Source of the DNA: an uncultured virus (IMG/VR IMGVR_UViG_3300003617_000006)
Lineage: Duplodnaviria > Heunggongvirae > Uroviricota > Caudoviricetes
Reading direction: 5' to 3' (one strand)
Virus record (IMG/VR): IMGVR_UViG_3300003617_000006
DNA length: 64,000 bases
Part shown: positions 5,690-53,395 of the stretch, one piece after another
Position numbering within the stretch: the first letter of the stretch is position 1
Layout: every line of letters starts with the position of its first letter
Translations under genes and position numbers: made by a program
Notes under the pieces: model-generated
Told to the model about the DNA's origin: nothing
The model's input: only the letters and a program-made list of their open reading frames with translations
Database searches by the model: none

Positions 5690-6148
5690 TTAGAAGTTTC
5701 CCTCGTTGACCTGCATACAGGATAAACCGTTGTCTCTCCACATCTTCACTACCTTATCTCTATCATCAAACACACATAAGATATCTTCTTTGTTAGGGAA
5801 CAAATCGTCCAACCATTTTTTCTTTAAGTCATCATCCGGCATGAACATAAACTCTTTACTGGTAGGTCGCATCTTTAATATATCAAATGGTACATTGAAA
5901 TTATTTAACCATTGTTTAGTGGCGTCTTTAGTCGCTTTACTACGACCTGAAAAGATTACAATTCTATGTCCCGACTCTTTTAATAATCTCGCCATAACAA
6001 TCACAGGAGTATTTGGTAAATCCAAATCAATATTCTTAGGGTCAAAAAAGACATCCCAATCCATCTTACCATTTTCCTTTGTTGATAATTGTCTTCTCTC
6101 CTCGATATCCGCTATCGTACCATCTAAATCAAAAATTACTGTTTTCAT
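5690..6148 (-). CDS. HAD-family acid phosphatase, T4 PseT (Pnkp) 3'-phosphatase-like
   Basis: FDLDGT, FSGR, LKMRP and FDDR..VV.MWR.NG motifs; start moved to MKTVIFD because a promoter sits at 6170-6177. Confidence 0.85.
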   Translation of the reverse strand: MKTVIFDLDGTIADIEERRQLSTKENGKMDWDVFFDPKNIDLDLPNTPVIVMARLLKESGHRIVIFSGRSKATKDATKQWLNNFNVPFDILKMRPTSKEFMFMPDDDLKKKWLDDLFPNKEDILCVFDDRDKVVKMWRDNGLSCMQVNEGNF

Positions 6149-6216
6149 ACTACTTTTTATTGTTCCATACAAATATAACACATATTTTTCACATTATAAA
6201 AAGAAACCTAAAACTT

Positions 6217-8586: not shown

Positions 8587-8973
8587 TTATCTTAATTTAA
8601 CGTTAAATCTGTCTTCCATTTTTTGTAAACTTTCTTCTGGTACTCCATGTTCATTTACACCACCATGTCTGTTTTCAACAATTAGTGAATAAACTCTGTA
8701 CCCATACTTTTCTGCAAGTTCAAAATATGGTTTCATTTCCCATTCTTGGGTGAATGTGTTTGAAACTACTATTTTTTCTCCTAAAGCCATTGCTAATTCG
8801 GTATTGGATTGGCACCAATTATGTGCCCTTTTAAGTTTATCCGCATCGAATTTATATTCACCCTCTGAATCTATGAAGTACATATCGGCTTCTAAATGTT
8901 TACCTCCTAATGATTTTGCTAATGTTGATTTACCACTACCTGGTAATCCTCTTAATAAGAATAACTCTTTCAT
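8587..8973 (-). CDS. P-loop (AAA_33) polynucleotide-kinase-like protein
   Basis: LLRGLPGSGKST, EADMYF, VSNTFT and HGVPEE motifs. Confidence 0.85.
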   Translation of the reverse strand: MKELFLLRGLPGSGKSTLAKSLGGKHLEADMYFIDSEGEYKFDADKLKRAHNWCQSNTELAMALGEKIVVSNTFTQEWEMKPYFELAEKYGYRVYSLIVENRHGGVNEHGVPEESLQKMEDRFNVKLR

Positions 8974-8976
8974 AAT

Positions 8977-9984
8977 TTATAATTTTCTAAATTCTGGTTT
9001 AATAATTCTCCATAAGGTTTCTGAGTAATCTGAACCATCTAACATCTTAAAAAGAAGTTGTGGATATTTGTATCTTTTTGCTAGTTTCGCAAATTCAGCT
9101 CTATCATTTATTAGATGTCCCATTTTATTAAAAATCCAAACATATTCAGTCTCTAACATAATGTATTGGTGTTTTAATTCTTCTACATATTCTTCGATTT
9201 TATTGAAGAACTCATCTGGTACATCTTCTAATATTTTATAAATATCATTTCCACTACTCAGACATTCCCATACAGATTTAGTTGAGATTTCTGTCATAAT
9301 CTTATGAAGTCTAATATATTCTTCACCTTTGATTTTACATCTATCTCCATTTGAGAACTTAACTACAAATCCTTCTCTATTTTTACCTATATTTTGTTTT
9401 AAGTATTTGTAATTCTTAATGTTATTGTAATTTTTAACAACATCATATCCATTCTTTCTAAATTGGTCTAACGAATATTCTTCACCTGATTTGGTTCCGA
9501 TTCTACCTAATAAAACTAATCTCTCTGAACCTGCGTAATCTACAACAATTCTGTTTTCTGGATAGATGATTTCAAACATATAGGTTGAATCTTTAGAAAA
9601 ATGAGATTGTTGAAAATTATCCTTAAACATCTCACCACCTTTAATTGCCTGCTCAGAAGTAAAAGAACCTCTACTTGCAAAAATCCATTTACCGTCATAG
9701 TAAAATGCAATACCTAAAGAACCATCCATTTTCTCATATACTTCAAACTCATCAGTTATTGTATGTTTCCCCTCCTCAATATTAAAGAACTTTTTAAATG
9801 GTCTTGCAACTATATTACCCATTTCATCGGTAACCAATCCTCTACATTGTAGAGTAATTTCATCCCACTTACCTTCATATTGAGTCGCCTGAGAATAGTT
9901 CCATATTGTTAATGGAAGAGTTAGATGAGTTTGTTTAATCAACCATCCCTCGTCATAATACTTCTCTAATAACTCTAAGTTCAT
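8977..9984 (-). CDS. T4 Rnl1 (RnlA)-family RNA ligase
   Basis: CRGLV, ARPFKKFFN, motif I EKMDGSL, EGFVV, KIKGEEY; start moved to MNLELL because a promoter sits at 10000-10007. Confidence 0.9.
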   Translation of the reverse strand: MNLELLEKYYDEGWLIKQTHLTLPLTIWNYSQATQYEGKWDEITLQCRGLVTDEMGNIVARPFKKFFNIEEGKHTITDEFEVYEKMDGSLGIAFYYDGKWIFASRGSFTSEQAIKGGEMFKDNFQQSHFSKDSTYMFEIIYPENRIVVDYAGSERLVLLGRIGTKSGEEYSLDQFRKNGYDVVKNYNNIKNYKYLKQNIGKNREGFVVKFSNGDRCKIKGEEYIRLHKIMTEISTKSVWECLSSGNDIYKILEDVPDEFFNKIEEYVEELKHQYIMLETEYVWIFNKMGHLINDRAEFAKLAKRYKYPQLLFKMLDGSDYSETLWRIIKPEFRKL

Positions 9985-10031
9985 TTTGTAATGTTTCTGC
10001 AAATATAAGGGAAAAAAAGTGGGTTTAAAGA

Positions 10032-10945: not shown

Positions 10946-11101
10946 CTATTTATTTTCTTTAGTTACAATTTCTCTTCTCCACCATTTTGAGAATAGAGTC
11001 TTTGGGTTTCGTTTAACATATCTTTCCCCCACCACTAAAACAATGGCGATGAAAGTTGTAAACACAACGTAAACCTCAATCATTAATATTAATTCTTTCA
11101 T
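10946..11101 (-). CDS. small membrane protein (51 aa)
   Basis: hand-translated MKELILMIEVYVVFTTFIAIVLVVG...; promoter TACATTTG at 11117-11124. Confidence 0.6.
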   Translation of the reverse strand: MKELILMIEVYVVFTTFIAIVLVVGERYVKRNPKTLFSKWWRREIVTKENK

Positions 11102-11167
11102 ACGAATCTGTTTAACCAAATGTAAGTCTAATATTTACAAAAACAAATATAACCCTAAATTTATTTT

Positions 11168-11371
11168 ATGATTAAATTAACCACATTATCAGAAACAAAA
11201 AGTTCCGAACTCTATGTGAATCCAGAACTTATATGTTATATTACTAAGACATCCATGTGGGACGCATCGATTAGTGAGAATATTGACCTCACTAAAATAT
11301 ATTTTAATCAGGAACACTACCTAATGGTAAGTGAAACCCCTGAAGAGATTATAAATCTAATTAAGAGGTAG
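11168..11371 (+). CDS. FlbD-like small protein
   Basis: MIKLT...YVNPELI...VSETPEEI pattern. Confidence 0.65.
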   Translation: MIKLTTLSETKSSELYVNPELICYITKTSMWDASISENIDLTKIYFNQEHYLMVSETPEEIINLIKR

Positions 11372-12664
11372 TACGTTAAACATTAACTCTACGAACCCCT
11401 CATCATTAAATCCAAACGAACTAATCTTAGGTTGTAGATACTCTTTGATACAGTCACCAACTTCAGTCTCTATCTCCCACAATTGGTTTTCCTCCATATA
11501 CTCACTGACGTTGAATATATCACCTAAATCGTGTAAGGTACCGTCGAGTAAACTAACATTACTACCACTATCAATTTCAACATTAATTGTTATATATTCT
11601 TTAACCTCTAAACTTTTAATTCTAAAAATTAAGTCGTACCCTCCACAGAAAAATTCATGAATGCCCGTTTCAGACGCAGTTTCATTAATCTTATCTATAA
11701 TAACCTGTATTCCTCCGATATAGTCAACTTTATGTTGATTAATGTCCTCAACACTACCACGTATATATTTCGACTTATTACTATCCAAACCGTTTCGGTC
11801 CCATAAATAAGATAATGTTTTCTTTTCAACATCAGAAAGTTGCGAACTCGGTTTTTTGTCCGGCCTTTGGAAGCGCTGAAGAGATTCGTTCAATCCCTCA
11901 ACATCTTTCTCAATTGAATCACCAATAATGTCACTAATGATTATCTGCACATTAGGAATATATCGACCAATGGATACTTCCAACTCACCAATAAAGTTAT
12001 CGTATTCAATCCTTGCACTATTCACATACAGATTAACATTCACAATAGGAACCTCATCATTTGTAAAGCTAATAACATCAATCCTATCTACAGAACTGAT
12101 TTCATCTAACTCATCCATCTCACCTAATCCCATATCGAACGCGTAATCTTGAATCTTTTGAACACCGTTATTAATTAAAGTCTGTATTGTCGATAAATTA
12201 TTACTTTCATTCAATCCCTCAACATCACTACTCTCTACGTTCTGATTTAAATCACCGATAAAGACCATTGGGGTGAATCCTATTGCTGCCGAAACACATA
12301 AACGAGTGTTACCCGATACCAAATGATATCTGTCGTTAAACTTAACGATAAGTGGTCTCTTATAGGTATCCTCCATAAGTTTAAGTCTTAACTTATATGG
12401 GTTACTCTTACCATACATACTGGCAATATGTATTACCTTCTCAAACTCACCTTCTTCTATTGTGTTTGATTCTGTATTTTCTAGTTTATCCCATATTTCT
12501 TTGGTTAACTCTACGGCTTCTACACCTTTAAATGATTTCTTTACCTCTTTAACCGACACTGGGAAATTATCGTTTCGGGTTATTTGTTGAGACACTCTCT
12601 TTATCTCATCCATCTCACCCTTTATATCAGGTACACTATTTAATGTATTAACTACCTTATCCAT
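11357..12664 (-). CDS. multi-module protein with N-terminal ParB/Srx-like domain
   Basis: RPLIVK...YHLVSGNTRL ParB-like motif; DVEGLNES linker occurs twice. Confidence 0.7.
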   Translation of the reverse strand: MDKVVNTLNSVPDIKGEMDEIKRVSQQITRNDNFPVSVKEVKKSFKGVEAVELTKEIWDKLENTESNTIEEGEFEKVIHIASMYGKSNPYKLRLKLMEDTYKRPLIVKFNDRYHLVSGNTRLCVSAAIGFTPMVFIGDLNQNVESSDVEGLNESNNLSTIQTLINNGVQKIQDYAFDMGLGEMDELDEISSVDRIDVISFTNDEVPIVNVNLYVNSARIEYDNFIGELEVSIGRYIPNVQIIISDIIGDSIEKDVEGLNESLQRFQRPDKKPSSQLSDVEKKTLSYLWDRNGLDSNKSKYIRGSVEDINQHKVDYIGGIQVIIDKINETASETGIHEFFCGGYDLIFRIKSLEVKEYITINVEIDSGSNVSLLDGTLHDLGDIFNVSEYMEENQLWEIETEVGDCIKEYLQPKISSFGFNDEGFVELMFNVLPLN

Positions 12665-12666
12665 TA

Positions 12667-13044
12667 TTAATTGTCTTTATTTCTTAATTGAGTAAATATA
12701 CTCCCAAACCTATCCTTTAGACTTTTTACTATATCTATTGGAGTGTATTCTAATGGTGAGTTATATCTATCAGACTCTAATTTATCATAACAATATTTCA
12801 CCATAAAGTGAACATCTTCTTTTGGTAATCTTAAAAAGAATCTTCTACACATTACGTTTATCCTATCTCTTATACGTATAGATGAAATATCATAAAGAAA
12901 CTCATCAGTACACTTACTATCTTTAAACCTATTAAATGTTTCATAGGTCAAAACATACCCCTTACCATTTAACTTAGTATATATCAACCCCTTTAGTATA
13001 TATACATCACATAACACCCTTAATCCACCCTTAGGATATCCCAT
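12667..13044 (-). CDS. hypothetical protein
   Basis: ORF track; overlaps the sulfotransferase stop. Confidence 0.6.
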   Translation of the reverse strand: MGYPKGGLRVLCDVYILKGLIYTKLNGKGYVLTYETFNRFKDSKCTDEFLYDISSIRIRDRINVMCRRFFLRLPKEDVHFMVKYCYDKLESDRYNSPLEYTPIDIVKSLKDRFGSIFTQLRNKDN

Positions 13045-13852
13045 AGTCTCTCCAACTTTCAGGAACTCTACCGATAGTATCTTTTACTTTCTGAACTGAT
13101 GGTCTATATATGTCATACAACATCTCGTATTGAGACTCATCAATATCCGTTAATACTGACTTATCAGATGAATTCTTAATCATAAAAGGTAATTCTTCGT
13201 GTCCAACCTCTAAGTATTTAAATAACTTTGTTAACTCAACACTACGATTCGTCTTAAACTCTTCAGTAATAATATAGTGACAGTTGTCACCAAATACGGA
13301 TTGTATATTATCCAACAATATGTCGTAACGACCTAACTGTATCTTATTCATCGAACTCATCCTATAAGGTTGGTGTTTATCTAAAAAGTAATACCTTTCC
13401 AACTGAAACGATAAGAAACTCTCAAATGTCGTATTCTCATCCATCTCATCCCATATTGAACTGTAATAGTCAGGCGAATACCTACTATAGTCCTCGTCAA
13501 TCTTTGACCTCAGTACTGAATTCATAAAAGACCACCACGATAAAAACTTATCAATAGGGTCTCTCATCATAAAGATGTTTTTTACGTCATCCCCACAATA
13601 ATGTTTAATCGCCTCTAAATATGTTTTTGAGTTTGAGTGTGTAACACTTTTGTCACCTATAATCTTTTTGTCTTGTCCGTCAATGAAATATTCATTAACC
13701 CATAACTCAACAGGGGTAGTATAAAAACTACGACTAAAATAATGCGTTTCGTCATCCGTAAAATACATCTCTGAATGATGACTTAGGACTTTCTGTAAGG
13801 TAGAAGTGCCACATTTGGACCCTCCTAAAATAAATGTATTTGGTAGTTTCAT
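13031..13852 (-). CDS. PAPS-dependent sulfotransferase
   Basis: LPNTFILGGSKCGTSTL (5'-PSB), ETHYF, RDPIDKFLS (3'-PB) motifs. Confidence 0.9.
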   Translation of the reverse strand: MKLPNTFILGGSKCGTSTLQKVLSHHSEMYFTDDETHYFSRSFYTTPVELWVNEYFIDGQDKKIIGDKSVTHSNSKTYLEAIKHYCGDDVKNIFMMRDPIDKFLSWWSFMNSVLRSKIDEDYSRYSPDYYSSIWDEMDENTTFESFLSFQLERYYFLDKHQPYRMSSMNKIQLGRYDILLDNIQSVFGDNCHYIITEEFKTNRSVELTKLFKYLEVGHEELPFMIKNSSDKSVLTDIDESQYEMLYDIYRPSVQKVKDTIGRVPESWRDYGIS

Positions 13853-13912
13853 TTAACTGATTATATTATTCCATAAATATAGTCGTTAAATTTTTAATAG
13901 TGAAGTGATTTG

Positions 13913-14155
13913 TTAATTAGACCCCGAAATACGTTCCGTATTCATTATTTGGTCTAACTTAGTGGATGTGATATGAATCTGTTCCCTGATTTCTTTTACT
14001 TTGTCTGTTGTGGTATCTGTAGATTTTAAGTGACTAACACTTACTGGAGTTTGGAGTCTACAATGATGTCCAGTCTCTGTGGTTGAAACTAGTAATATAG
14101 TGAATGTCATTAACAATAATGTAACGACTGTCGGTATATATTTATTCTTTTTCAA
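13913..14155 (-). CDS. small protein with N-terminal TM/signal segment
   Basis: ORF track; hydrophobic N-terminus. Confidence 0.6.
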   Translation of the reverse strand: MKKNKYIPTVVTLLLMTFTILLVSTTETGHHCRLQTPVSVSHLKSTDTTTDKVKEIREQIHITSTKLDQIMNTERISGSN

Positions 14156-14396
14156 GTTTTTCTAAAATTTTATCAACTTTACCGTCTACAGATTTAAGGT
14201 CTCTCTTGATGTAGTCTAATTCTACTTGTAGAGCCTCAGGATTTACCTTTTCTAATTTCTGTTCCATTCTCTCAACCTTATCCTTAAGTAACTCAGTCTT
14301 AGTATCCATACGATAGTATAGACCAACTGCAGATAAAATAAGAACAGTTATCGTGATGTAATCTTTAAGTGCGAATTTTGGTGCCGTTATTGCCAT
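14142..14396 (-). CDS. TM plus coiled-coil protein (holin/spanin-like, tentative)
   Basis: single TM then heptad-rich tail; TATTTAT at 14415-14421. Confidence 0.6.
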   Translation of the reverse strand: MAITAPKFALKDYITITVLILSAVGLYYRMDTKTELLKDKVERMEQKLEKVNPEALQVELDYIKRDLKSVDGKVDKILEKLEKE

Positions 14397-14520
14397 GTTT
14401 AAAATCTTATACTAATAAATATCATTAAAAAATAGAAACTACAAACTTAAATAAAGTTTTTTTTAACTTATTTAATTTATTTAGTCTCTTTATATAAATA
14501 CCTTAAAAAAGTTTTTACAA

Positions 14521-14552
14521 AAAAAAACCTCTGCAGTTTTACTACAGAGGTT
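14521..14552 (-). terminator. intrinsic terminator of the large ncRNA
   Basis: minus strand AACCTCTGTAG-TAAAA-CTGCAGAGGTT followed by a T run. Confidence 0.85.
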
Positions 14553-14559
14553 GAGGGGT

Positions 14560-15370
14560 ATTGAACGCTGAGACTACACGTCTATGTGATTCGTCTTTAG
14601 GTGGTGTACCTCAATGATGAGTTGCCATCCTGTCCACCATACTTTAGTATAGTATCGAATCAGTGTCGGTTATTTACGTGAACCACTCGTTTCGTTGAAC
14701 AACTACTCAACTACAAAATTAAACTATCGAATCTTGCGGACTCACTAAGGGCTGACCACCCACTAATTTTATCGTAATCGACATCGGAAGACTTGCGGTC
14801 TTACGAAGACTTCATTAATCCTATGGACCTGAAGTATTAGACACCTTTCGTTGTCAACGCCTGAAGTCTTTTGCTTGTATCTATCTTATAATAGTAGCAA
14901 AATGTGAGTTAAGTAAAGATGTGCTTCAGGAGAAGGTTCATTCCTTTTGGGAAAGAAATACTTCACACCTTTATGTAAGTCTGTCAACCTACGGTATTTC
15001 AGGACTACGTTTACTTTAACGTATCGGTAACCCTTAATACTGGTACTCAGCCCTACAATATCTGACAGGATATGTCGAACCGTCACCTGTGGTTTATCCT
15101 ATTGGTATCACTACCTCAACTTCGAAATCTCACAAATTCAAAGTATCTTCTTTCCCTCAACAGTTGTCCTCAGGAAATTAGACGTTACCACTTTGTTTAG
15201 TTGTCAGAGTTAAACTCTGCGGGTTTCCAATAGATACTACTCTACCTTCTACCCCTTTAGTCCTGTTGCCAGGTTTATCTAACGACGCTAAACCGCCAAT
15301 TTGATTATATATTTACACTTTTTAAAGGGGGTTAATCCATCAACAAAATATTGATATAATCAAACTAATA
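14560..15370 (-). ncRNA. GOLLD-like giant structured RNA (~800 nt); ends approximate
   Basis: ORF-poor and GC-richer; many stems with GNRA loops (CCUG-GCAA-CAGG, AAGACC-GCAA-GUCUU, GAGUCC-GCAA-GAUUC); 3'-half motifs AAGCAAAAG, AACGAAAG, AGUAGUU..AACGAGUGGUU..AACCG, AAAGAC and GUGUAGUCUCAGC match my recollection of the GOLLD 3' core. Confidence 0.82.
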
Positions 15371-15377
15371 CATTAAA

Positions 15378-15533
15378 TAAAGAACTCGTCTAAATTTTAT
15401 TACCTTACAAATCTAAGGATAGTTTTTCATTATGTCAAACTATTTTTTAAATTTTTAAGGTTTTTTTTGTATTTGTTATAATCTTAACGACTTTAACTAT
15501 ACAAATGTAGAAAATAAATATAACAGTATCAAC
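15378..15533 (-). promoter_or_regulatory. tandem host-type promoters plus boxA-like element upstream of the ncRNA
   Basis: TTTG(15436-39)-N20-TAGATTTG(15408-15); TACATTTG at 15502-15509; GTTCTTTA at 15378-15385. Confidence 0.7.
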
Positions 15534-15569
15534 TAAAGTTCTATTTTATTTGACACTTTTTTTAGTTTT

Positions 15570-17405
15570 CTACTCTACCGTCACACTTTTTGCTAAGTTT
15601 CTAGGTTTGTCAACGTCTTTACCATTCAATGATGCGATTTTATACGATAGTAATTGTAGTGGTACAACCGTCAATAACGGAGATACATACTCATTAACTT
15701 CATCAATATAAATTACGTCATCAACAATAGTCTTAGTCATTTCATCACCTTTGTAACAAATAGCAATAACTTTACCACCTCTCGCCTTTACCTCTTGGAT
15801 ATTAGATAAAACTTTATCGTAGTGAGGACCTGATTGTGCTATGAACACACTAGGACAATTCTCATCAATCAGAGCGATTGGTCCGTGTTTCATCTCACCA
15901 GCAGGATATCCCTCAGCATGAATATAAGATATCTCTTTTAGTTTTAACGCTCCCTCCAATGCAGTTGGGAAGTTAATACCTCGACCCATAAATAAAAAGT
16001 CTTCATAGTCCTTATACTTTTCAGCAATTCTAAATATCTCTTCCTTATTATCAAGTATGTTCTTAATCTTCTCAGGAATAAATCTTAGAGACTGTTTGAT
16101 ATTATAGAACTCATGGTCTGTAATGTTATTAAGTTGTTTCGATAGTTTTAACGCCAACAACATAAAAGCCGTCACCTGTCCTGTGTACGCCTTTGTAGAT
16201 GCAACCCCAATCTCAATACCTGAGTGTGTGTATATTCCGGCATCTACCATACGTGCGATTGAAGAACCAACGGAATTGACCACACCGAATAAAGTAGCAC
16301 CCCTTTCCTTAGCCATCTCCAATGCCGCTTTGGTATCTGCAGTTTCTCCTGACTGAGAAATCGCAATAACAACATCTCCGTGTTGAATAATAGGATTACG
16401 ATATCTGAACTCAGACGCGTAATCAACCTCAACGGGTATTCGGGTTAAATTCTCAATTAAGTATTTCCCCACTAACCCAGCGTGCCAACTAGTACCACAA
16501 GCAACAATAAAAATACGTTGTGCTCTTAATAGTTTTGGTAATATACTCTCCGTTCCTCCCATCATAAGTGGTAAGTCCCCGTCTGTTAAACGACCCCGTA
16601 AGCAATTTAAAATGGTTTCTGGTTGTTCAGCAATTTCCTTTAACATAAAAGAATCAAAACCACCTTTCTCGATTGTTTCTAAGTCTAAATCAACTTTCTC
16701 AATCACAGGATTAACATCTTTATTATCCATATCAATAATACGAATACCACCCTCTGTAATTGTGGCAATCTGATTATCCTCGACATAAATAATGTCATCC
16801 GTATGAGTAAGGATTGGAGTGGCATCGGATGCAACCATAAAGTAGTCCTCACCGATACCTATCGCCATTGGTGAACTTTTCCTTGCGGTTACAACCTTAT
16901 CCTCGTTAGTATCCATCACTAAGATAGCATACGCTCCAACAACTTCTTTTAGTGAGAGTCTAACAGACTCCTCTAATGAACATTCACACTTTACCTTAAC
17001 ATAGTGAATCCAATTCACCAAAACTTCAGTGTCAGTATCCGAATGGAATTCATACCCTTCAGACTTTAACTTAGTTTTAAGTGTTTCGTAATTCTCAATA
17101 ATTCCGTTATGGACTAATGTGATTGTCCCATCGTTGGATGAGTGTGGGTGGGCATTTCTAACTTCAGGTGCTCCGTGGGTAGCCCAACGAGTATGACCAA
17201 TAACCATATTAGTCTCACTAAATGTACTATCCAACTTATTAACCAATTGGTCAACACCTCCCACCGCTCGAGTAACAGTAATCCCGTCTTTAGTACGTAT
17301 CGCAATACCTGAAGAATCATACCCTCGATATTCCAAACGAAACAATCCGTTGATTACTTTATTGACCGGTGAGTCATTACCTATATATCCTACAATCCCA
17401 CACAT
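15570..17405 (-). CDS. glmS: glutamine--fructose-6-phosphate transaminase (isomerizing)
   Basis: MCGIVG, LEYRGYDSSG, GHTRWATHG, SQSGET and C-terminal PRNLAKSVTVE. Confidence 0.98.
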   Translation of the reverse strand: MCGIVGYIGNDSPVNKVINGLFRLEYRGYDSSGIAIRTKDGITVTRAVGGVDQLVNKLDSTFSETNMVIGHTRWATHGAPEVRNAHPHSSNDGTITLVHNGIIENYETLKTKLKSEGYEFHSDTDTEVLVNWIHYVKVKCECSLEESVRLSLKEVVGAYAILVMDTNEDKVVTARKSSPMAIGIGEDYFMVASDATPILTHTDDIIYVEDNQIATITEGGIRIIDMDNKDVNPVIEKVDLDLETIEKGGFDSFMLKEIAEQPETILNCLRGRLTDGDLPLMMGGTESILPKLLRAQRIFIVACGTSWHAGLVGKYLIENLTRIPVEVDYASEFRYRNPIIQHGDVVIAISQSGETADTKAALEMAKERGATLFGVVNSVGSSIARMVDAGIYTHSGIEIGVASTKAYTGQVTAFMLLALKLSKQLNNITDHEFYNIKQSLRFIPEKIKNILDNKEEIFRIAEKYKDYEDFLFMGRGINFPTALEGALKLKEISYIHAEGYPAGEMKHGPIALIDENCPSVFIAQSGPHYDKVLSNIQEVKARGGKVIAICYKGDEMTKTIVDDVIYIDEVNEYVSPLLTVVPLQLLSYKIASLNGKDVDKPRNLAKSVTVE

Positions 17406-17411
17406 ATAATA

Positions 17412-17627
17412 CTATCCTACTAATGTACCTTTAAGACTTCTAAGAGCCTCCATCTTATCTTTTGCCGATGCTAATTGGTCGATAAGACCATCAATCTCTT
17501 CCGTGTGTTGTGGGTGTTCCCCAATCGCCACAGGGTTTTTGAAATAAATGGTTAATCTTGCCGTTGCATCTGCAATATCAGATTCGTACTTTTTGACTGT
17601 TGCGTCGTATAATAATTCACTAATCAT
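17412..17627 (-). CDS. conserved small phage protein (VAIGEHPQ)
   Basis: ORF track; NPVAIGEHPQ motif. Confidence 0.75.
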   Translation of the reverse strand: MISELLYDATVKKYESDIADATARLTIYFKNPVAIGEHPQHTEEIDGLIDQLASAKDKMEALRSLKGTLVG

Positions 17628-17644
17628 AATTCTGTTTTTTAGTT

Positions 17645-18700
17645 TTACTTTATAAATGTAGTATTTGTTTTTAGTCTTTTCAAGCTCTCGATAAACATTT
17701 TTATCACAGATTCTACATCATCTTTATGTGCCATCTCAACAGTTGTATGCATGTACTTTAATGGTGTTGCAACAATCGCAGTTGGTATACCACCATCAGC
17801 TAAGAAGAATCCCATAGTGTCGTTACCATACGAACCAATCGTTAGTTGGTAAGGTATCTCATTTTCATCTCCAACTGTTCTGAATAACTCAATCAACTGT
17901 CTATGGTTTTGTGCGGTGTGTTCAATAGCGCAACCGTTACCACCAATAGTCTCACAGTCCTTCTTAACATCATACATCGGTGCCTTTGTGATATGACACA
18001 CATCAGTTACCAATGCAACATCTGGTTTGATATTATTAGCAATCATTCTCGCTCCGTACAATCCAACTTCCTCCTGTACTGAATTGACAACATACAAATC
18101 AAACGGTAACTTATCACCATTCTCTTTTAATCTACGAGTAACCTCTGCGATGATGTAACCACCAATCTTATTATCCAATGCCTTTCCAACATAATAGTTA
18201 CCCATCTCGTGTAGTCGGTCATCGAAGTTTACAATGTTACCCACTTCAATACCCATTTCGATAACCTCATCCTTAGAACTCGCACCCACATCGATAAAGT
18301 TATTCTTCAATGATGGATTGTCCTCTTTGTCTTTTCTTACGTGAATCGCTGGCCAACCAAATACTCCCTTTAGTCTACCGTTCTTTCTCGTATGAATAAC
18401 CACTGTTTTTGATGGGGCAATCTGATGGTCTGAACCACCGTGTCTAACCACATATACAAAACCGTCAGCATCAATGTGAGAAATCATCCATGAAATCTCA
18501 TCACAATGTGCCTCAATAACAACTTTCTGTGCTCCTTCAATACCTGACTTTACAATACCATAAGCAGTACCATAGTTATCGTGATGAATCTCATCAACAT
18601 ACTCAGTTAAATAATCCGTCCACACCTTTTGTCCCTCACCTTCTTCGGCAACAGGAGAATACGCATTTAGGTAATCATATAAAAATTCCTTACTGTCCAT
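17645..18700 (-). CDS. M42 family metallo-aminopeptidase
   Basis: EAHCDEI, KALDNKIG, VQEEVGL, LKYMHTTVE; start at MDSKEFL. Confidence 0.93.
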   Translation of the reverse strand: MDSKEFLYDYLNAYSPVAEEGEGQKVWTDYLTEYVDEIHHDNYGTAYGIVKSGIEGAQKVVIEAHCDEISWMISHIDADGFVYVVRHGGSDHQIAPSKTVVIHTRKNGRLKGVFGWPAIHVRKDKEDNPSLKNNFIDVGASSKDEVIEMGIEVGNIVNFDDRLHEMGNYYVGKALDNKIGGYIIAEVTRRLKENGDKLPFDLYVVNSVQEEVGLYGARMIANNIKPDVALVTDVCHITKAPMYDVKKDCETIGGNGCAIEHTAQNHRQLIELFRTVGDENEIPYQLTIGSYGNDTMGFFLADGGIPTAIVATPLKYMHTTVEMAHKDDVESVIKMFIESLKRLKTNTTFIK

Positions 18701-18734
18701 ATTTATTAATTTAATACTATTTATTAAAAGAAAT

Positions 18735-19079
18735 ATGAATATAAAATTTAAAGATATCAACTTACCAGTCACTTTATGTGTCACTCCAGAACAAATACGT
18801 AAAGGTATTCAGGGGTTGGACTCATTAAACGGTGAAGGATACTTATTTTTCTTATCGGAAGGTCAACATTCCTTTTGGATGAAAGACTGCCTAATCCCAA
18901 TAGATATTATATTTCTTCAGGACGGTAAAATTACAGAAATTTATTCGGATTGCCAACCCTGCACCTCAGAAGATTGTGAAAAATATTTAGGTACTGGTAA
19001 TATGGTATTAGAAGTTGAATCAGGTTTTTGTTCACAACACGACATAAAAAAAGGAGAATCCTTTCGAATTCTCCCTTAA
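18735..19079 (+). CDS. DUF192 family protein
   Basis: GYLF..SFWMKDCLIPIDIIF...VLEVESG. Confidence 0.9.
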   Translation: MNIKFKDINLPVTLCVTPEQIRKGIQGLDSLNGEGYLFFLSEGQHSFWMKDCLIPIDIIFLQDGKITEIYSDCQPCTSEDCEKYLGTGNMVLEVESGFCSQHDIKKGESFRILP

Positions 19080-37086: not shown

Positions 37087-38157
37087 TTAATTTGATAGTG
37101 GTGCTTTAATACTTGGGTGAGATTGATAATCATCTAATACAAAATCATTAACTCTCAAAATATCTATAATTGAATCGAAGTCTTTTAGATGGCTTTTGAA
37201 AAGTAACTTAGTTAATTTCATAGGCTCTCTACTAATCTGTTCTTTAGCTTGTTCAATATGATTTGAATATAAATGAACATCTCCTAAATTACCAATTAAT
37301 TCATCAGGAACCATATTTACTTCTTTAGCAATGATTTCCAATAACAATCCGTAAGAAGCAATATTAAATGGTAAACCCAAGAATGTATCTACTGAACGTT
37401 GATTCCACATTAAGGATATAGACCTCTTTGGTGTTGCCGTATAATAATCATCATCAAAATTAGGTATGTTAGATTCATTGTATTCCATACCCGTCTCATA
37501 ATTATTTTTAAACCAATAGGCATACCTCTCATTATCACTCAACTCTCTTGTATAAACTTGAAAACCATAGTGGCATGGTGGAAGTGTCATTTGGTCTATC
37601 TCACCGACATTCCAAGCATTAACCATTAATCGTCTTGAGTCTGGATTTGTTTTTAAATCATTGATTAGGTTTTGGATTTGGTCTATTTGTTTTGTATAAA
37701 CGCCAGGGTCAACTATTTTCTCATCACGAGTTGCATTTCTGCTCCAACTTCTCCATTGTTTACCATAAATTGGTCCTAATTCACCCCAATCTCTAGCAAA
37801 AGCATCATTAGTTTTAATTAACTCTATAAATTGTTCTTGAGTATATCGGGGTCCATGCCAACCGGGAACAAATTGGTCTGCGTACTTCTTATAAGCATCA
37901 CCATTCCAAATGTTACACCCATTATCAACTAGGTATTTAATGTTAGTATCTCCTTTTAAAAACCAAAGTAACTCGGTTACCATAGTTTTAAACGCCATCT
38001 TCTTAGTAGTAAGAAGTGGGAAACCATCACTCATTTTATGTCTGATTTGTCTACCAAATACTGAAATAGTTCCAGTACCTGTCCTATCCTCTTTCTTTAC
38101 TCCATTTTCAAGTACATCTTTTAGGAGTGATTGGTAATCTTTATCTAGTTTATTCAT
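37087..38157 (-). CDS. thyA: thymidylate synthase
   Basis: DRTGTGT, ELLWFLKG, LGPIYGKQWR, LPPCH, QRSVDTFLGLPFNIASY. Confidence 0.97.
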   Translation of the reverse strand: MNKLDKDYQSLLKDVLENGVKKEDRTGTGTISVFGRQIRHKMSDGFPLLTTKKMAFKTMVTELLWFLKGDTNIKYLVDNGCNIWNGDAYKKYADQFVPGWHGPRYTQEQFIELIKTNDAFARDWGELGPIYGKQWRSWSRNATRDEKIVDPGVYTKQIDQIQNLINDLKTNPDSRRLMVNAWNVGEIDQMTLPPCHYGFQVYTRELSDNERYAYWFKNNYETGMEYNESNIPNFDDDYYTATPKRSISLMWNQRSVDTFLGLPFNIASYGLLLEIIAKEVNMVPDELIGNLGDVHLYSNHIEQAKEQISREPMKLTKLLFKSHLKDFDSIIDILRVNDFVLDDYQSHPSIKAPLSN

Positions 38158-44658: not shown

Positions 44659-47469
44659 TTAAGACATTTCATCTAAATCATCACTTAACTTACTCAACTT
44701 AGCGTGTTGTTCGTTAAACGCATTTACTAATAACGATGTCATCTGTGGGTAATTAACCTTTAAGAATCCATCAGCACTTTCAACAACTAATTCAGGTAAA
44801 ACTTTCTGTACTTCCTGTGCGATTACACCGATATCCGTTGGAGTTTCCAACGACTTTGGTTTATAATCACCTTTCCATACGAACTCAACACCTCTAATGC
44901 TCATTGCTTTATCTAACGAATTAGAAATCAATTCTACATTTTTCTTAGCTCTTATATCAGATGCGGGTCCTGTATAACCTCTAGGTCCTTTAGCTCCTGT
45001 ATAACCTCTAGGTCCTTTAGGCGCTCCTAATGGTACTATACCAGCAGGTCCTTTAATCCCTTTATAACCTTGTGGTCCTCTAACACCTTTTGTGGTATTA
45101 CCGTAACCTTGCGGTCCTTGATTACCTCTACTGTTACTCGCAGTACCTTGGTTACCAGGTTCACCTACATTTCCTGTTGGTCCTTGGTTACCTCTTGGTT
45201 GTGGGTCTCCTATTGAATTCCAATATTCCCTTCCATTTAACCCTCGGCTACCTTTTTTACCTTTAACACCTTTATTACCTTTAGGTCCTCCGTCACCAGG
45301 TCCTCCACGGTAGCTATCACCTTGTGGTCCTTGTGCACCAGTGGCTCCCATAGTTTTACCAGGTCTGTTACCTTTGATACCTTTGTAACCCTTAACACCT
45401 TTAGTAGTATTTGCATCCCCACCTTGTCCACCAGGTCCTCTATTACCTTTAGTTCCGATATTACCTTTAGGTCCTTTTGGTGAGTATCCTGTTGGTCCTT
45501 GGTTACCTGTAGCACCTTTGTAACCTTTGTTACCTTTAGTACCTTTATCTCCAGGTCCTCCTTGTGGCCCTACTGGTCCTTGTGGTCCTACTGGTTGATA
45601 TCCTTTAGGTCCTGCGTTTCCTTTAGGTCCTTTTCCACCAGCATTACCTTTAAGTAAGTTGGTCGTGTAACCTTTGTCCCCTAATGGTCCTACGTCTCCT
45701 CTATTACCTTTAGGTCCTTTGTTACCTTTAACCCCTTGAGGTCTAGCACCAATATTACCTTTAAGTCCTACGTAACCTTTAACACCTTTGATACCTTTTC
45801 CACCTGTTGGTCCTTGTGGTCCCGTTGGTCCTACTGGTCCTTGTGGTCCTCCCGGTCCTTGTGGTCCCTGTACACCTTGTGGTTGATAACCTTTAGCACC
45901 TTGGTATCCTTGTGGTCCACGGTCTCCAGCGTTACCTTTGTAACCTTTGTTACCAGTAGCACCTTTATAACCTTTAACCCCTTTATATCCTTGAGGTCCT
46001 TGTGGTCCTTGTCCACCTCTGTTACCTTTGGTATTACCACCTTGTGGCCCTCTAGGTCCTTGCGGTCCTGTTGGTCCTCCCGGTCCTGTAATACCTTTAT
46101 CACCAATAGGTCCTGTTGAACTATCACCAACACCACCACGATATCCTTGAACACCCTGTGTTCCTCTGTAACCTTTATCACCACCAGGTCCTGTAATACC
46201 TTTTGCTGATGTGTTACCTTTGATACCCTTAAGTCCTTGGTAACCTTGTGGTCCCGTTGGTCCTTGTGGTCCTAAAATGTTAGAGACACCTTTTCTACCT
46301 TTTCCACCTGTTGGTCCTTGTGGTCCTGTAGCTACTGAAGGTCCTTTAAGACCTTTATAACCTTTAGGTCCAATTATACCTTTATAACCTTTAATGTTTC
46401 CACCTTGGTTACCCTGTGGTCCTCTGTATCCCTTAACACCTTGATTACCCTGTGGTCCTCTAGGTCCTTTTGGTCCTGTTCCTCCACGATAACCTTTGTC
46501 ACCACCTTGACCTACAGGTCCTCTTGGTCCTTGCGGTCCTTGATATCCCTGAGCTCCTTGGGCTCCTTGTGCTGATGGAGTACCTACAACACCTTTATCA
46601 CCTTGCGGTCCTTGGAACCCTTGAAGTCCTCTAGGTCCTTTAGTTGTGTTAGCATCACCCTGAATACCACGGTCACCATTAACACCTTTAAAACCTTTGA
46701 TACCTTTGATACCTTTTTGTCCTACCGGTCCTGTAATACCTTTAGGTCCCTGTGGTGAAACACCTTGAGGTCCCTGATAACCAGTATTACCCTGTGGTCC
46801 TACGACACCTTTGTTACCTTTGATACCTTTAGCACCTTGGTCCCCTACAGGTCCTAAGTTACCTACAGACCCTATATTTCCTTGTGGTCCTCTGTATCCT
46901 TTTGGTCCGATATTACCTTTAGTCCCTTGCGGTCCTGTTGGTCCTACGACACCCTTCTCACCAATAATACCTTTAGTACCTTTGAATCCTTTGTCACCAG
47001 GTCCTCCTTGGACTCCCTTGTTACCTTTGTTTCCTTTGGTACCGATATTACCTTTAATACCTAATGGTCCTTTATCACCGTTTATACCAGCGTAACCTTT
47101 AGGTCCTGTCGGCCCTGTTGGTCCCGTTGGGCCAGTGGTACCTTTAGTACCCTTAGCTCCAACGTTACCTACATAACCTTTTATGTTAGTGATAGACCCA
47201 ACCCAATTACCGTTTTCATCGATAACTATGTCAGTTAAACCTTCACCGTTTTTCATTATAATCTTACCGTCCACAAGTTTTAAACCTCCAGACATTTTTA
47301 CCCCACCAGAACCAATTTCTAATGCTGATATTTCTCCGTCGTTACCTACTGTTAGTGGAAGGTTTTCACCCATAGATACTTTCATATCCACAGTACCGTT
47401 ATTTACAAACAATATCTCTGGAGATGATAACCCTTCTCTATTTGGTGTTATTAATATATTCTTAGCCAT
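44659..47469 (-). CDS. collagen-like fibre protein 3 with C-terminal peptidase S74 chaperone
   Basis: long Gly-X-Y tract; SDIRAKKNV..IRGVEFVW..IGVIAQEVQKVLPELV. Confidence 0.92.
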   Translation of the reverse strand: MAKNILITPNREGLSSPEILFVNNGTVDMKVSMGENLPLTVGNDGEISALEIGSGGVKMSGGLKLVDGKIIMKNGEGLTDIVIDENGNWVGSITNIKGYVGNVGAKGTKGTTGPTGPTGPTGPKGYAGINGDKGPLGIKGNIGTKGNKGNKGVQGGPGDKGFKGTKGIIGEKGVVGPTGPQGTKGNIGPKGYRGPQGNIGSVGNLGPVGDQGAKGIKGNKGVVGPQGNTGYQGPQGVSPQGPKGITGPVGQKGIKGIKGFKGVNGDRGIQGDANTTKGPRGLQGFQGPQGDKGVVGTPSAQGAQGAQGYQGPQGPRGPVGQGGDKGYRGGTGPKGPRGPQGNQGVKGYRGPQGNQGGNIKGYKGIIGPKGYKGLKGPSVATGPQGPTGGKGRKGVSNILGPQGPTGPQGYQGLKGIKGNTSAKGITGPGGDKGYRGTQGVQGYRGGVGDSSTGPIGDKGITGPGGPTGPQGPRGPQGGNTKGNRGGQGPQGPQGYKGVKGYKGATGNKGYKGNAGDRGPQGYQGAKGYQPQGVQGPQGPGGPQGPVGPTGPQGPTGGKGIKGVKGYVGLKGNIGARPQGVKGNKGPKGNRGDVGPLGDKGYTTNLLKGNAGGKGPKGNAGPKGYQPVGPQGPVGPQGGPGDKGTKGNKGYKGATGNQGPTGYSPKGPKGNIGTKGNRGPGGQGGDANTTKGVKGYKGIKGNRPGKTMGATGAQGPQGDSYRGGPGDGGPKGNKGVKGKKGSRGLNGREYWNSIGDPQPRGNQGPTGNVGEPGNQGTASNSRGNQGPQGYGNTTKGVRGPQGYKGIKGPAGIVPLGAPKGPRGYTGAKGPRGYTGPASDIRAKKNVELISNSLDKAMSIRGVEFVWKGDYKPKSLETPTDIGVIAQEVQKVLPELVVESADGFLKVNYPQMTSLLVNAFNEQHAKLSKLSDDLDEMS

Positions 47470-50400
47470 ATCTATTATTTATTGTTTAGTCTAAGTTTAT
47501 TTATTTCTTCCTCTAATTTGTCAATATTAATCTGTTCCGCTTTAATAGCTTCAATGATTAATGGTACAACTCTAGAGTACGACATTGTTAAGAAACCTAA
47601 AGAGTTCGTAGTAACCGATGCCGGTAATACTTCCTTAGCGTTCTGTGCAACAAATCCGATATCATGTTTACCATAGTATCCAACTTCTGCCCATTCTTTC
47701 TCTAATGACTCTTGTGTCCAATCATACTCAACAGGTACTAAGTCCATGATTTTATCTAAAGGATTTGATATTTCAACAATATCAGTCTTTAGTCTAACAT
47801 CCGAAGATGATAATCCACCACCATCATTTTGTGGATAATCACCGCCTGGTCCTCTACACGTAGAAGCCTGAGACCATGAAATACCATTCCAGTAATATGT
47901 CGACCCGTTAGCAGAATAATATCCTGGTTCCGCTAATTGACCACCAAATGGGTCCAAATAGATAGGATTACTAAAACTGAAAGTACTAGACGTTTGGAAA
48001 ATCTCTATATTCCTAGGAGAATTACAACTAGAAAAATAATCACGACCATTAGCAATTATGTGACTGTAGTAAGTAGTTTGTGCTGGACCTGAAAGTCCTG
48101 TATCACCACGATTACCTTTAGTACCAGTAGCTCCTCTATTACCTTTAAGTCCTACAGTTGCGTCAGCTCCAGCATTACCTTTTGGTCCTACCGCTCCTCT
48201 ATAACCTTTTACTCCGTTAGCCCCTTTTGGTCCTCTAGGTCCTTTATAACCTTGAGTTCCTGCCGGACCTGTAGGTCCTTGATAACCTCTAGGTCCTTTA
48301 ACACCTTTAGGTCCAATCGTTGGTGTGTAGTTACCTCTAGAACCAGGTCCACCTGGGCTACCTGCGTAACCTTGTATACCTCTGTTTCCTTTAGGTCCTT
48401 TTGCACCTTGATTTCCACTTGCGTATCCTTTGTCTCCTGTTGGTCCTTTGTCTCCACCGGCACCTGTAGGTCCACTAGCACCTTGATACCCTGTTGGTCC
48501 TCTACCACCGTTATAACCTTTAGCTCCTTTATAACCTTTATCTCCTTGTGGTCCTGTTGGTCCTACATTACCTATGTTACCTTTAGTTGCGGTATTACCT
48601 CTTGGTCCTTTTGGTGATGGTCCTGTATAACCTTTAGGTCCTTGGTCTCCACGGTATCCTTTAGGTCCTATGTTACCTTTGATACCTTTGTTACCTTTGG
48701 TTCCAGTATTACCTCTATCACCTTGTGCTCCTCTATTACCTTTAGTACCTACTGGTCCTTGATAATGTGGTCCTCTGTAACCTTTAACACCTTTATAACC
48801 TTTAGGTCCTCTGTTACCTTTGTAACCTTGAGGTCCTTGTGGGGCAGTACCACCTACAGGTCCTTGACCACCTTGGCCACCTCTAGGTCCTTGTGGTTGG
48901 TATCCTTTAACACCTTTGTTACCCTTATAACCTTTGTTACCTTTGTAACCTTTATCACCTACTGGTCCTGTCGGTCCTTGCGGTCCTGTACCACCTCTAA
49001 GTCCTGTCGGTCCTCTGTTACCTTTATGACCTTTCTGACCGATAACCCCTTTTGGGCTACTACCTTGTGGTCCTCTGTAACCTTGAGGTCCTCTATTACC
49101 TTTGTAACCTTTGTCTCCTACAGGTCCTTGTCCACCTATTGGTCCACCAGGTCCACCAGGTCCTACATTACCTTTGATACCTTTATTACCTTTGGTTCCA
49201 ACGTAACCTTTAACACCTTTAGGTGCGATATAACCTTTATCTCCTGTAGGTCCTCTATCACCCGTAATTCCCGTGTTACCACGATTACCTTTGTTACCTT
49301 TAAGTGCTGGTGTTTGATTACCCTGAGGTCCAACATCTCCTTGTGGTCCTATATAACCTTTAACACCTTTGTTACCTTTGGCTCCAGTATTACCGATATA
49401 CCCTTGTGGTCCTTTAACACCTTTAGGTGCTACTAATCCCGGAGTATTTGGGTCGTCATTCTGAGGTAAACCTTTAGGTCCCTGTGGTCCTCTATAACCT
49501 TGTGGTCCTTGATTACCTCTGTCACCTGTTGGTCCTACATTACCTATGTTACCTGTAAGTCCTCTATCTCCAGTATTACCTATGTTACCTTTAAGTCCTT
49601 TACCACCGCCTGGTCCTGCAACACCTTTGTTACCTTTATTACCTTTGTAACCTTTGTCACCTCCTGGTCCTGTTGGTCCTTTTGGTCCTGTTGGTCCTTT
49701 TGGTGATGAACCGATACCCCCTTGGATACCTTTATCACCTACAGGTCCTCTGTTACCAATATTACCTTTTAAACCTACAGGTCCTTTTGGTTGATAACCT
49801 TTTGGTCCTTGACCTCCTCTGTTACCTTGGTTTCCTTGAACTCCTTTAAGTCCTTTCGCCCCAATGTTACCTTTAGTTCCTACAGGTCCTAAGTCACCAG
49901 TATATCCCTTAGCTCCGATGTTACCTTTGATACCTTGCGGTCCTTGATACCCAACGTTACCCGTTATACCTTTGATTCCTTTATAACCCTGAGGTCCTTT
50001 TGGTCCGATTTCACCTTTTGGTCCTCTAGGCCCTACAGGTCCTAAGTCACCAACGTTACCCTTGATACCTTTAATTCCCTGAATACCTTTTGGTCCTTGC
50101 GGTCCATCGTTACCTCTATAACCTTTATCACCAGGTGCTCCATTATCTGAAGTTTCACCCTGTGGTCCAACGTTACCTTGAATACCTTTGTTACCTTTAG
50201 GTCCCTTCTGACCTACTGGTCCTCTGTTACCTACAGTACCTTTGATACCCTTTATTCCTTTTACTCCTTGATATCCTTGTGGACCCTTTAAACCTTGAGG
50301 TCCTTTAATATCACCTAAGTAAACACCGTTCTCATTAATGATTACGTTACCCTGAGAATCCTTCAAATCACCTTCAATAATAAGGTCACCTTGAATTACG

Positions 50401-53130: not shown

Positions 53131-53395
53131 TAAAATTAGAGGTATCACCTACGTAGTCACTTTCGATGAATGAGTCTTGTTCTTTGTTCTTAATTAAACC
53201 TGTTTGAAGGTTTTGGTTCTTTACTGTGGCAGTACCCTGAGCGTCAAATTCCATAAGTGTTGTTCCACCAGACTTGAAGATAAGAGAACCACCGGGGGTT
53301 AACCCGATGGTAATCTCTTCTACTCCATGTGTGATAACAATACTTGGATTACTTGACCCCGTAATATTCGGTGTGATTTTAATGTTCTTAGCCAT
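50594..53395 (-). CDS. collagen-like fibre protein 1 with S74 chaperone
   Basis: Gly-X-Y tract; SDKRLKENI..LRGVNFEW..GFIAQEV; TATTTAT at 53446-53452. Confidence 0.92.
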   Translation of the reverse strand: MAKNIKITPNITGSSNPSIVITHGVEEITIGLTPGGSLIFKSGGTTLMEFDAQGTATVKNQNLQTGLIKNKEQDSFIESDYVGDTSNFIGDKGRKGNTGPTGAQGAQGNQGQKGLKGYIGSRGVIGPQGAKGPEGIVGPTAQKGAIGAQGQQGPIGPIGPQGGQGPQGQQGLKGNKGYVGNQGPIGIKGNRGEQGQKGLSPKGITGPLGPQGPTGNRGAKGIKGNKGATGNVGPQGQQGPQGPQGPTGPTGDRGDTGLKGYRGNFGPQGDKGYKGTKGTTGDKGYSAAKGLKGNKGIKGIKGNKGVIGYQGPQGGQGDKGYQPQGPIGYKGIKGIQGPQGYKGIKGNFGPKGPRGPQNGGGDLGPIGSGGLTGTKGNRGAQGPVGTQGPQGNLGNTGNKGNKGVIGPVGSPGAQGYQGPQGGPGDKGIKGNKGVKGYTGNSPRGPQGAQGYQGPQGGPGNKGVKGYVGNKGIKGPKGNIGVKGNRGPGGPTGPVGTQGNKGPKGYTGPKGYIGLKGNTGGKGIKGNKGVKGNIGAKGNQGPQGPRGITGPQGPTGPTGAKGIKGYTGNKGIKGNAGPGGDRGPQGSRGTTGIVGGKGDKGYQGPVGDKGYKGGAGGQGNQGAQGNQGGRGAKGGIGDRGPQGDTGTKGNIGNKGANSAAGEKGYKGNKGPKGNAGPRGGSGPKGPRGPGGPTGPQGYKGYKGAKGFKGNAGTAPKGYRGNTGGRGPTGPTGDKGYSGTNDNLGITFPGGLKGNRGTKGNKGNKGKLGPKGYRGNEGGGGPRGPVGTKGNRGPVGATATSPGGSGPQGLRGPTGYQGAKGPIGSQGPPSDKRLKENITELTMAIDKITKLRGVNFEWIEDSEFNILKQKGKDTGFIAQEVKEVLPELTTEVPGGAVIVNYAKMTSILIASLREQRQIVQDLNNKLEIIKSKNNK

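Follow-up and report, generated by a model that had tools for sequence, protein, structure and literature searches.

The GOLLD RNAs of phages are often encoded beside or around transfer RNA (tRNA) genes, an arrangement that is not obligatory, and to our knowledge there is little in print on how these RNAs are made in cells. Here, we analyzed a 64,000-nucleotide DNA stretch of an uncultured virus (Caudoviricetes; IMG/VR record IMGVR_UViG_3300003617_000006; hereafter, the window) and the GOLLD gene on its minus strand, which we read, with a probability of about 80%, as the gene of a marine Bacteroidota-type phage set behind a promoter-boxA leader in the style of ribosomal RNA (rRNA) genes. According to the passages of PMC12286853 drawn on here, GOLLD is a described phage RNA family with solved structures and no known function; its members are of ~0.8 kb and assemble into RNA-only nanocages, and the marine env-38 GOLLD forms a 14-mer cage, as seen by cryogenic electron microscopy (Kretsch et al. 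2025). ROOL (RF03087) is, in the same passages, likewise a large, phage-associated, cage-forming RNA, unrelated to GOLLD in sequence and fold. The closest described leader is that of the rRNA (rrn) operons, where boxA, to which NusB-NusE of the antitermination complex binds, often has a hairpin before it and is transcribed as part of the leader, after a strong promoter and ahead of a long RNA that is structured and untranslated (PMC5725501, PMC3177189, PMC10250234); its gammaproteobacterial consensus is given in a passage of PMC5725501 as GYTCTTTAANA.

Analysis with Rfam at the gathering threshold gave a sole match in the window, and this corresponded to GOLLD (RF02032; 14973-14565, minus strand), with 244.8 bits versus a gathering score of 150 and an E-value of 2.5e-68. 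The match spanned model positions 1-416 of 416, was untruncated and included the pseudoknot of this 3'-domain model. ROOL gave no Rfam match within the 64 kb. The initial annotation, made from the bases alone, had described a "GOLLD-like" giant RNA of ~800 nt with no credible open reading frame (ORF), and had named a covariance-model search as a way to check it; that search was significant over the full model and above Rfam's own threshold, so the wording was an understatement. In agreement, the gene occupies an ORF-poor gap of 1.17 kb on the minus strand, with a glmS-like gene (15570-17405) on one side and a small ORF (14142-14396) on the other, and just short ORFs were found between the gene ends 14396 and 15570. 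That this stretch encodes a member of the GOLLD family is practically certain.

Relatives of the locus were found among uncultured viruses. A blastn search at a distant setting with positions 14400-15600 against 50,697 deposited phage records detected no relative. A 15-base word of the 3' domain retrieved 109 viral loci, and 27 of them were GOLLD by nhmmer; all the other word matches, which were not GOLLD by this method, were rejected as chance. Twenty-one of the 27 aligned with ~15337-14505 of the window at 70-77% identity and had the 5' domain in common. All of the 20 close relatives tested were GOLLD by Rfam, with 290-308 bits, and the window scored below these relatives of its own, with 244.8 bits. 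A word of the 5' domain was present in 88 IMG/VR viral contigs, and prokaryote genomes, scanned with one representative for each species, gave 0 matches. This distribution, together with the tail-fibre and phage-type genes of the window, establishes the phage origin of the locus, and its being viral only fits a lytic, uncultured phage group. Full flanks were available for 67 of the 88 loci and, together with the window, they gave 47 distinct sequences. The parts of the gene are as follows:

15532-15502, minus strand: distal promoter-like site, TTGATA-17 nt-TACATTTG, with its -7 box at 15509-15502
15439-15408, minus strand: proximal promoter, TTTG-N20-TAGATTTG, with the -33 TTTG at 15439-15436 and the -7 TAGATTTG at 15415-15408
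15385-15378, minus strand: boxA-like element GTTCTTTA, whose GTTCTT is invariant in 47/47 distinct sequences
15298-15367, minus strand: hairpin domain of the leader, after the boxA-like element and before the core of GOLLD, with UUUGAUUAUAU / AUAUAAUCAAA as its closing strands in single-sequence folds
14974-15297, minus strand: GOLLD 5' domain, from homology in the 88 viral contigs and covariation
14565-14973, minus strand: GOLLD 3' domain, the RF02032 match
~14913-14860, minus strand: A/U-rich linker of 54 nt inside the 3'-domain match, holding no tRNA
14555-14556, minus strand: apparent 3' end, a hint from RNA-library contigs (not raw reads) of 4/4 runs
14517-14552, minus strand: intrinsic terminator (hairpin 14552-14526), with a 12-bp stem, a 3-nt loop and a T-run

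RNAalifold was run on the 47-sequence alignment of the leader and the 5' domain. The covariation among homologs that the initial annotation had proposed to look for was evident, since 41 of the 87 pairs predicted in the 5' domain showed compensatory changes. Moreover, in the 5'-domain alignment 99.4% of the cells paired versus 33-44% after the partners were slid by 1-3 columns, and the observed covariation score was reached by none of 500 shuffles. Because of the covariation, the slid-partner control and the shuffles, we conclude that the 5' domain (~15297-14974) is a real, conserved fold. This agrees with the build of the GOLLD family, in which the conserved 3' domain adjoins a 5' domain that is structured but less conserved. 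In folds of 30 distinct leaders, the long closing helix of the leader hairpin was found in the same place, and its sequence differed between subclades. The loop of this hairpin, GAUUAACCCCCUUU, is complementary to AAAGGGG at ~15246-15252 (minus strand) in the 5' domain; CCCUUU-like and AAAGGG-like strings are kept in the relatives, and a pseudoknot, judged by eye, may form here.

When compared with env-38, the window GOLLD is alike in its two-domain build, its short A/U-rich linker, its phage origin and its marine source. As aligned by eye with the start of env-38 given in the supplement of PMC12286853, that start is homologous to 15297, and the order of parts is alike: a hairpin, a AAATAAAC-like strand, a GNRA hairpin and a TAAAG-G-rich strand. 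The window GOLLD measures ~734 nt from the core start to the model end versus 833 nt for env-38 (env-08-style numbering). Before the homologous start it has, unlike env-38, a boxA-like leader and an additional leader hairpin that covaries. In addition, a passage of PMC12286853 has env-38 adjoining tRNA-Met (downstream of it), whereas the window GOLLD has no tRNA beside or inside it. By analogy, the window GOLLD presumably forms an env-38-like cage.

The initial annotation had pointed to a boxA-like sequence at 15378-15385, and comparison of the relatives agreed with it: the variants among the 47 distinct sequences were GTTCTTTG(AAA) in 43, GTTCTTAC in three, and GTTCTTTA in the window. In 47/47, the motif follows the -7 box by 5-66 nt, an interval that in some cases holds a small hairpin, and precedes the GOLLD core by 88-108 nt; RNA contigs cross this region, and the start upstream of it is a predicted one. 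Because its distance from the -7 box varies, the motif is not a core promoter element. Single-sequence folds of distinct leaders left its first 8 nt unpaired in 24 out of 30. The window GTTCTTTATTT matches GYTCTTTAANA at 9/11 positions, the first 8 included, and the relatives' GTTCTTTGAAA matches it at 10/11, the consensus being gammaproteobacterial in both comparisons. The GOLLD leader has, thus, the core GYTCTTTA in common with rrn boxA and the same placement; the window element heads a phage RNA and that of rrn heads rRNA, and a boxA function in Bacteroidota would be an analogy. Elsewhere in the window, GTTCTTTGAAA with one mismatch was found at 2 sites, with no above-chance signal.

To place this motif beyond GOLLD, five jumbo relatives (119-297 kb) were scanned for GTTCTTTGAAA, with the reversed sequence as a control. 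It occurred 2-3 times per relative versus 0 in the control, and one site in each was the GOLLD leader. Among the seven other sites, three were inside an ORF and four were non-coding; each of these four had a TATATTTG box 4-14 nt ahead of it and, 4-5 nt further on, a gene for transfer-messenger RNA (tmRNA). These tmRNA genes had Rfam scores of 71-85 bits, and a motif-led tmRNA was present in 4/5 jumbo relatives. The tmRNA-bearing contigs are G001-G004 (L204, L199, L201, L198), and in three of these ~77-80 kb separate the tmRNA from GOLLD. The phage tmRNA genes have the -7 box and the GTTCTTTGAAA leader in common with the GOLLD gene, but tmRNA is an unrelated RNA family and the motif lies 4-5 nt from its mature end versus ~90 nt in the GOLLD gene. 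Neither Rfam nor ARAGORN detected a tmRNA in the 64-kb window.

Metagenome contigs were then scanned for a Bacteroidota-type 5' signature of the 16S rRNA gene (16S), which gave 119 loci, and 67 distinct leaders had ≥400 nt upstream. The motif GTTCTTTG was found in 38 of the 67, in most cases 67-161 nt upstream of where the 16S begins, and its reversed control in none; the relaxed form GTTC[TA]TT[GA]A was found in 52. A TAnnTTTG box lay at most 150 nt upstream in 45 of these 52 motif-bearing leaders (control, 3). Several 16S leaders read GTTCTTTGAAAATATTGA, identical to phage leaders, and 20/20 tested loci were small-subunit rRNA genes starting at model position 1. Because the tmRNA leaders, the 16S leaders and the boxA core agree, we read the motif as a signal of stable-RNA leaders and not as a piece of GOLLD, and it is very likely, from these comparisons, the host-type rRNA-leader element. 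The build of a stable-RNA operon, proposed in the initial annotation, is thus in keeping both with the conservation of the leader and with the same motif before tmRNA and 16S genes. Among the literature matches listed for the literal motif, most were primer lists, mycoplasma and phytoplasma papers being among them.

The promoters of this leader point to the same type of host. A TAnnTTTG box precedes the leader motif in 47/47 distinct sequences, and the -33/-7 form is, in a passage of PMC9723704, the sigma-A consensus of Bacteroidota (flavobacteria). Because the -7 box spans -12 to -5 in that description, the proximal transcription start is predicted near 15403; the distal one would be near 15497. 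Both host-type promoters of the initial annotation were located where it had put them and, as stated, the proximal one is general, but the distal one is kept only in part, as its counterpart (TTGA-N16-21-TAnnTT[TC]G) was found in 26/45 distinct relatives and the strict TAnnTTTG in 24/45. Between the two promoters, 30/45 distinct relatives carry a block, ATATTTATATCTTACCCTACT, that the window is without; it was seen in L110-L197, where ~60-100 nt separate it from the proximal -7 box downstream. On the coding strand of the window, the complete bipartite pattern was counted 8 times, versus a mean of 1.26 (sd 1.1, max 5) for 200 local shuffles. Six of these 8 window matches fall in the non-coding 14%. 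A Shine-Dalgarno-like motif was found in just 7 of the 52 window ORFs, and few such motifs are expected for Bacteroidota, as described in a passage of PMC6847099. Because the -33/-7 promoters are enriched and Shine-Dalgarno-like motifs are scarce, a Bacteroidota-like host is supported by the sequence, in line with the Bacteroidota phage of the initial annotation. A host search with the glmS-like protein in genome contigs gave 30 pattern matches, and none was confirmed. At the other end, the strong terminator noted from the start is the only terminator-like site in 13800-16000; a hairpin followed by a T-run was found in 44/45 distinct relatives, with a stem sequence that differs among them.

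The gene is, furthermore, apart from tRNA genes, and its description as a stand-alone gene held well beyond the window. ARAGORN found no tRNA in the 64 kb, and Rfam at the gathering threshold agreed. Within 3 kb of GOLLD, the number of tRNAs was 0 in the 88 related loci with ARAGORN and 0 in 20 loci with Rfam, and ARAGORN gave no tRNA in the loci retrieved with the 3'-domain word; ARAGORN is weak alone, as it found 1/4 of the tmRNA genes that Rfam found. Clusters of 5-13 tRNA genes were seen 37-48 kb from GOLLD in four jumbo relatives, and no cluster was seen in a further relative, which is rated 41% complete. Linkage to tRNA is, therefore, not needed for GOLLD.

Evidence that the RNA is made came from metatranscriptomes, which the initial annotation had named as a further check. 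Six runs contain 85-90% of the sampled words of 14400-15600 and may stem from one campaign; in addition, a look-up of sequencing runs placed the window DNA in marine and seawater metagenomes. The contigs of four of these runs were mapped on 11000-19000. The RNA was covered in all four. In three runs the covering contigs end at 14555, immediately next to Illumina adapter letters; in the remaining run the end is at 14556. Position 14555 lies 10 nt beyond the Rfam match, with the terminator stem 3 nt further on. The contigs of the RNA had a depth of 67-414, separate contigs of downstream genes had 2-5, and separate contigs within glmS had 8 and 11 (two runs); parts of 11000-19000 were without contig, and such stretches, e.g., 17942-19000, are no evidence of silence. 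Because the contig cover is uneven, plain DNA carry-over is argued against. These data are suggestive of an abundant GOLLD RNA and give a hint of a 3' end at 14555. The terminator hairpin seems to be missing from the accumulated RNA, which suggests endonucleolytic 3' trimming.

Collectively, these results suggest how the RNA would be made. The sigma-A polymerase of the host would most likely start near 15403, at the proximal promoter; it may also start near 15497, and some transcription would enter by read-through of the glmS-like gene. The nascent leader would then expose a single-stranded GUUCUUUA, the putative phage copy of the Bacteroidota-type 16S-leader motif, and this may recruit NusB, NusE (S10) and their partners, as boxA does in other bacteria. 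The polymerase could thereby complete ~0.85 kb of highly structured, untranslated RNA, escaping Rho-dependent termination and moving at a speed that helps the RNA to fold correctly; after boxA it would pass through the covarying leader hairpin, the 5' domain, the 54-nt linker and the 3' domain. Transcription would stop at the intrinsic terminator, the accumulated RNA would end at 14555, and it would then assemble into a cage like that of env-38. We consider the action of the leader motif through Nus factors, which is an analogy, to be slightly favoured, and antitermination of the GOLLD gene would follow the same analogy. A broader proposal, which we offer tentatively, is that Bacteroidota phages make their large stable RNAs, GOLLD and tmRNA, by the rRNA transcription machine of the host; a copied boxA would load Nus factors and be required for full-length synthesis, co-transcriptional folding and cage assembly. 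With the RNA at the copy numbers that the metatranscriptomes hint at, Nus factors might in addition be diverted from the rRNA operons of the host late in infection.

What is modestly new here is a tRNA-free GOLLD clade with Bacteroidota signals, in which comparative evidence suggests that the leader motif is the rRNA-leader element of the host phylum. The clade is coherent: its distinct sequences, at least 47 in number, come from uncultured phages of aquatic sources and have Bacteroidota-type signals, and its GOLLD is a self-contained gene, apart from the tRNA island and behind a putative promoter-boxA leader as in host rRNA and phage tmRNA. The metatranscriptome contigs suggest that the RNA is made in the sea, with a defined 3' end. 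Nus-dependent synthesis of GOLLD would be a concrete handle, approachable in a tractable flavobacterium. No paper naming GOLLD together with boxA was among the matches listed in our literature search, most supplements being outside that search.

Several observations weigh against the reading of the leader as a host-type boxA. The window itself has GTTCTTTA-TTT and not the GTTCTTTG-AAA of the clade, departing from it after position 7. The motif was found in 0/6 more distant GOLLD loci, searched over 1.1 kb upstream, and it is, from these sequences, not a GOLLD-wide feature in its present form. Our literature search found no binding or antitermination experiment in Bacteroidota. The 27-base 5' signature of 16S is taken by us to be a Bacteroidota marker, and the lineage of the leaders rests on it and on the promoter boxes. 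In the RNAalifold structure, UUCU of the motif is paired with AGAG where the two domains meet, and the motif may thus have a structural role. As for transcription, one contig continues through glmS to 17586 or 17905 in two runs, which does not show use of the promoters, and because of this contig, read-through from upstream is possible; contig depth is, moreover, one figure per contig, and strand, 5' end and level are not readable from assembled contigs.

Among the alternatives, the one that survives best, though we consider it unlikely, is that GTTCTTT(G/A) is another signal of stable-RNA leaders, for example a site where an endonuclease cuts to release the mature 5' end, or a DNA site bound by a regulator of stable-RNA promoters. 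A processing signal would be expected close to a mature 5' end, and in the phage tmRNAs the motif is just 4-5 nt away from that end; the motif is also A/U-rich and predicted to be single-stranded. TTC-N3-GAA is a small inverted repeat, and we found no experiment that ties the motif to NusB-S10 in Bacteroidota. However, the motif matches the boxA core GYTCTTTA of other bacteria given in the cited passage of PMC5725501, and it was found in rRNA leaders, where boxA lies elsewhere. For a fixed promoter or operator element, the spacing to the promoter varies too much, from 5 to 120 nt, and processing and Nus roles are compatible with each other.

An improbable alternative is that the motif is the 5' strand of the helix closing the GOLLD 5' domain, through the UUCU-AGAG pairing before the 3' domain, and that it is kept for structure. 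The helix predicted by RNAalifold has 4 bp, and 99.4% of its cells pair. Yet 0/4 of its pairs are compensatory, variation being on one side only, and one pair is broken in the window itself. The same motif also stands in front of tmRNA and 16S genes, where a partner of this kind is missing, and the env-38 RNA of PMC12286853, which by eye starts downstream of the homologous position in the supplement, still forms a cage. The boxA-like reading is, thus, preferred to both of these.

The initial annotation had also tied the RNA to the RNA-repair genes of the window: anti-phage RNases of the host would meet it as a substrate or a decoy, and it would work together with the Rnl1/Pnkp genes 5-9 kb away. 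The window indeed encodes such a set:

8977-10002, minus strand: Rnl1, a T4-type RNA ligase 1
8587-8973, minus strand: AAA_33 kinase, small and abutting Rnl1
5690-6181, minus strand: PNKP-type phosphatase, separate and adjoining DHFR

The set is split, with the phosphatase alone beside DHFR and the kinase-Rnl1 pair ~2.4 kb away. These genes, and the apparent abundance of the RNA, are in favour of the decoy. Nonetheless, the window Rnl1 as a query found nothing in five relatives that bear GOLLD, among them one with a rated completeness of 99%, whereas the phosphatase query detected genes 68-74% identical in 4/5 of these jumbo relatives, which shows that such searches work in them. In the relative rated 99% complete, the 60 kb that surround GOLLD were searched by tblastn with 42 window proteins; the phosphatase, DHFR, ThyA and flanking genes were found but no Rnl1 or kinase, and 42/42 self-controls matched. 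Because Rnl1 was not found in the relatives while the phosphatase search works, we conclude from the sequences that GOLLD does not travel with Rnl1 in the present clade. The proposed tie to Rnl1/Pnkp is, on these data, not supported. Moreover, these phages carry 5-13 tRNAs, known clients of such repair enzymes; for Rnl1/Pnkp of T4, tRNAs are the established clients. Taken together, the decoy is very unlikely. Finally, that the stretch is a small-protein gene, e.g., the longest ORF within the gap (66 amino acids, GTG start, 14886-15086), and not an RNA gene has next to no probability, as the Rfam GOLLD match and the base-pair covariation run through the same bases.

The genomic context of GOLLD was compared in the same relatives. 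Directly upstream of GOLLD, these have homologues of a 71-aa ORF (35/88) and of a 494-aa ORF (75/88) of the window. In the window, glmS-like and M42 aminopeptidase genes (15570-18784, minus strand) lie between the conserved 71-aa gene and GOLLD; because in the relatives GOLLD follows directly on the 71-aa gene, this pair looks like an inserted metabolic cassette. Nearly all the window genes are on the minus strand and, besides the RNA-repair set, they include ThyA, DHFR, a DNA methylase and several sugar-modifying enzymes; most window proteins have no PHROG match. Three tandem genes with collagen-triple-helix repeats, of 933-1039 aa and with a C-terminal S74 chaperone domain, were found at 44659-53395 (minus strand), with a GC content of 44-46% versus ~33% elsewhere, and are probably alternative tail fibres. 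Next to them, an ORF of 2250 aa (53453-60205, minus strand) has no Pfam match, and only its last 150 residues match PHROGs, which are of unknown function. The thymidylate synthase (37087-38157, minus strand) has 356 aa versus the 266 positions of its model, with ~90 extra residues.

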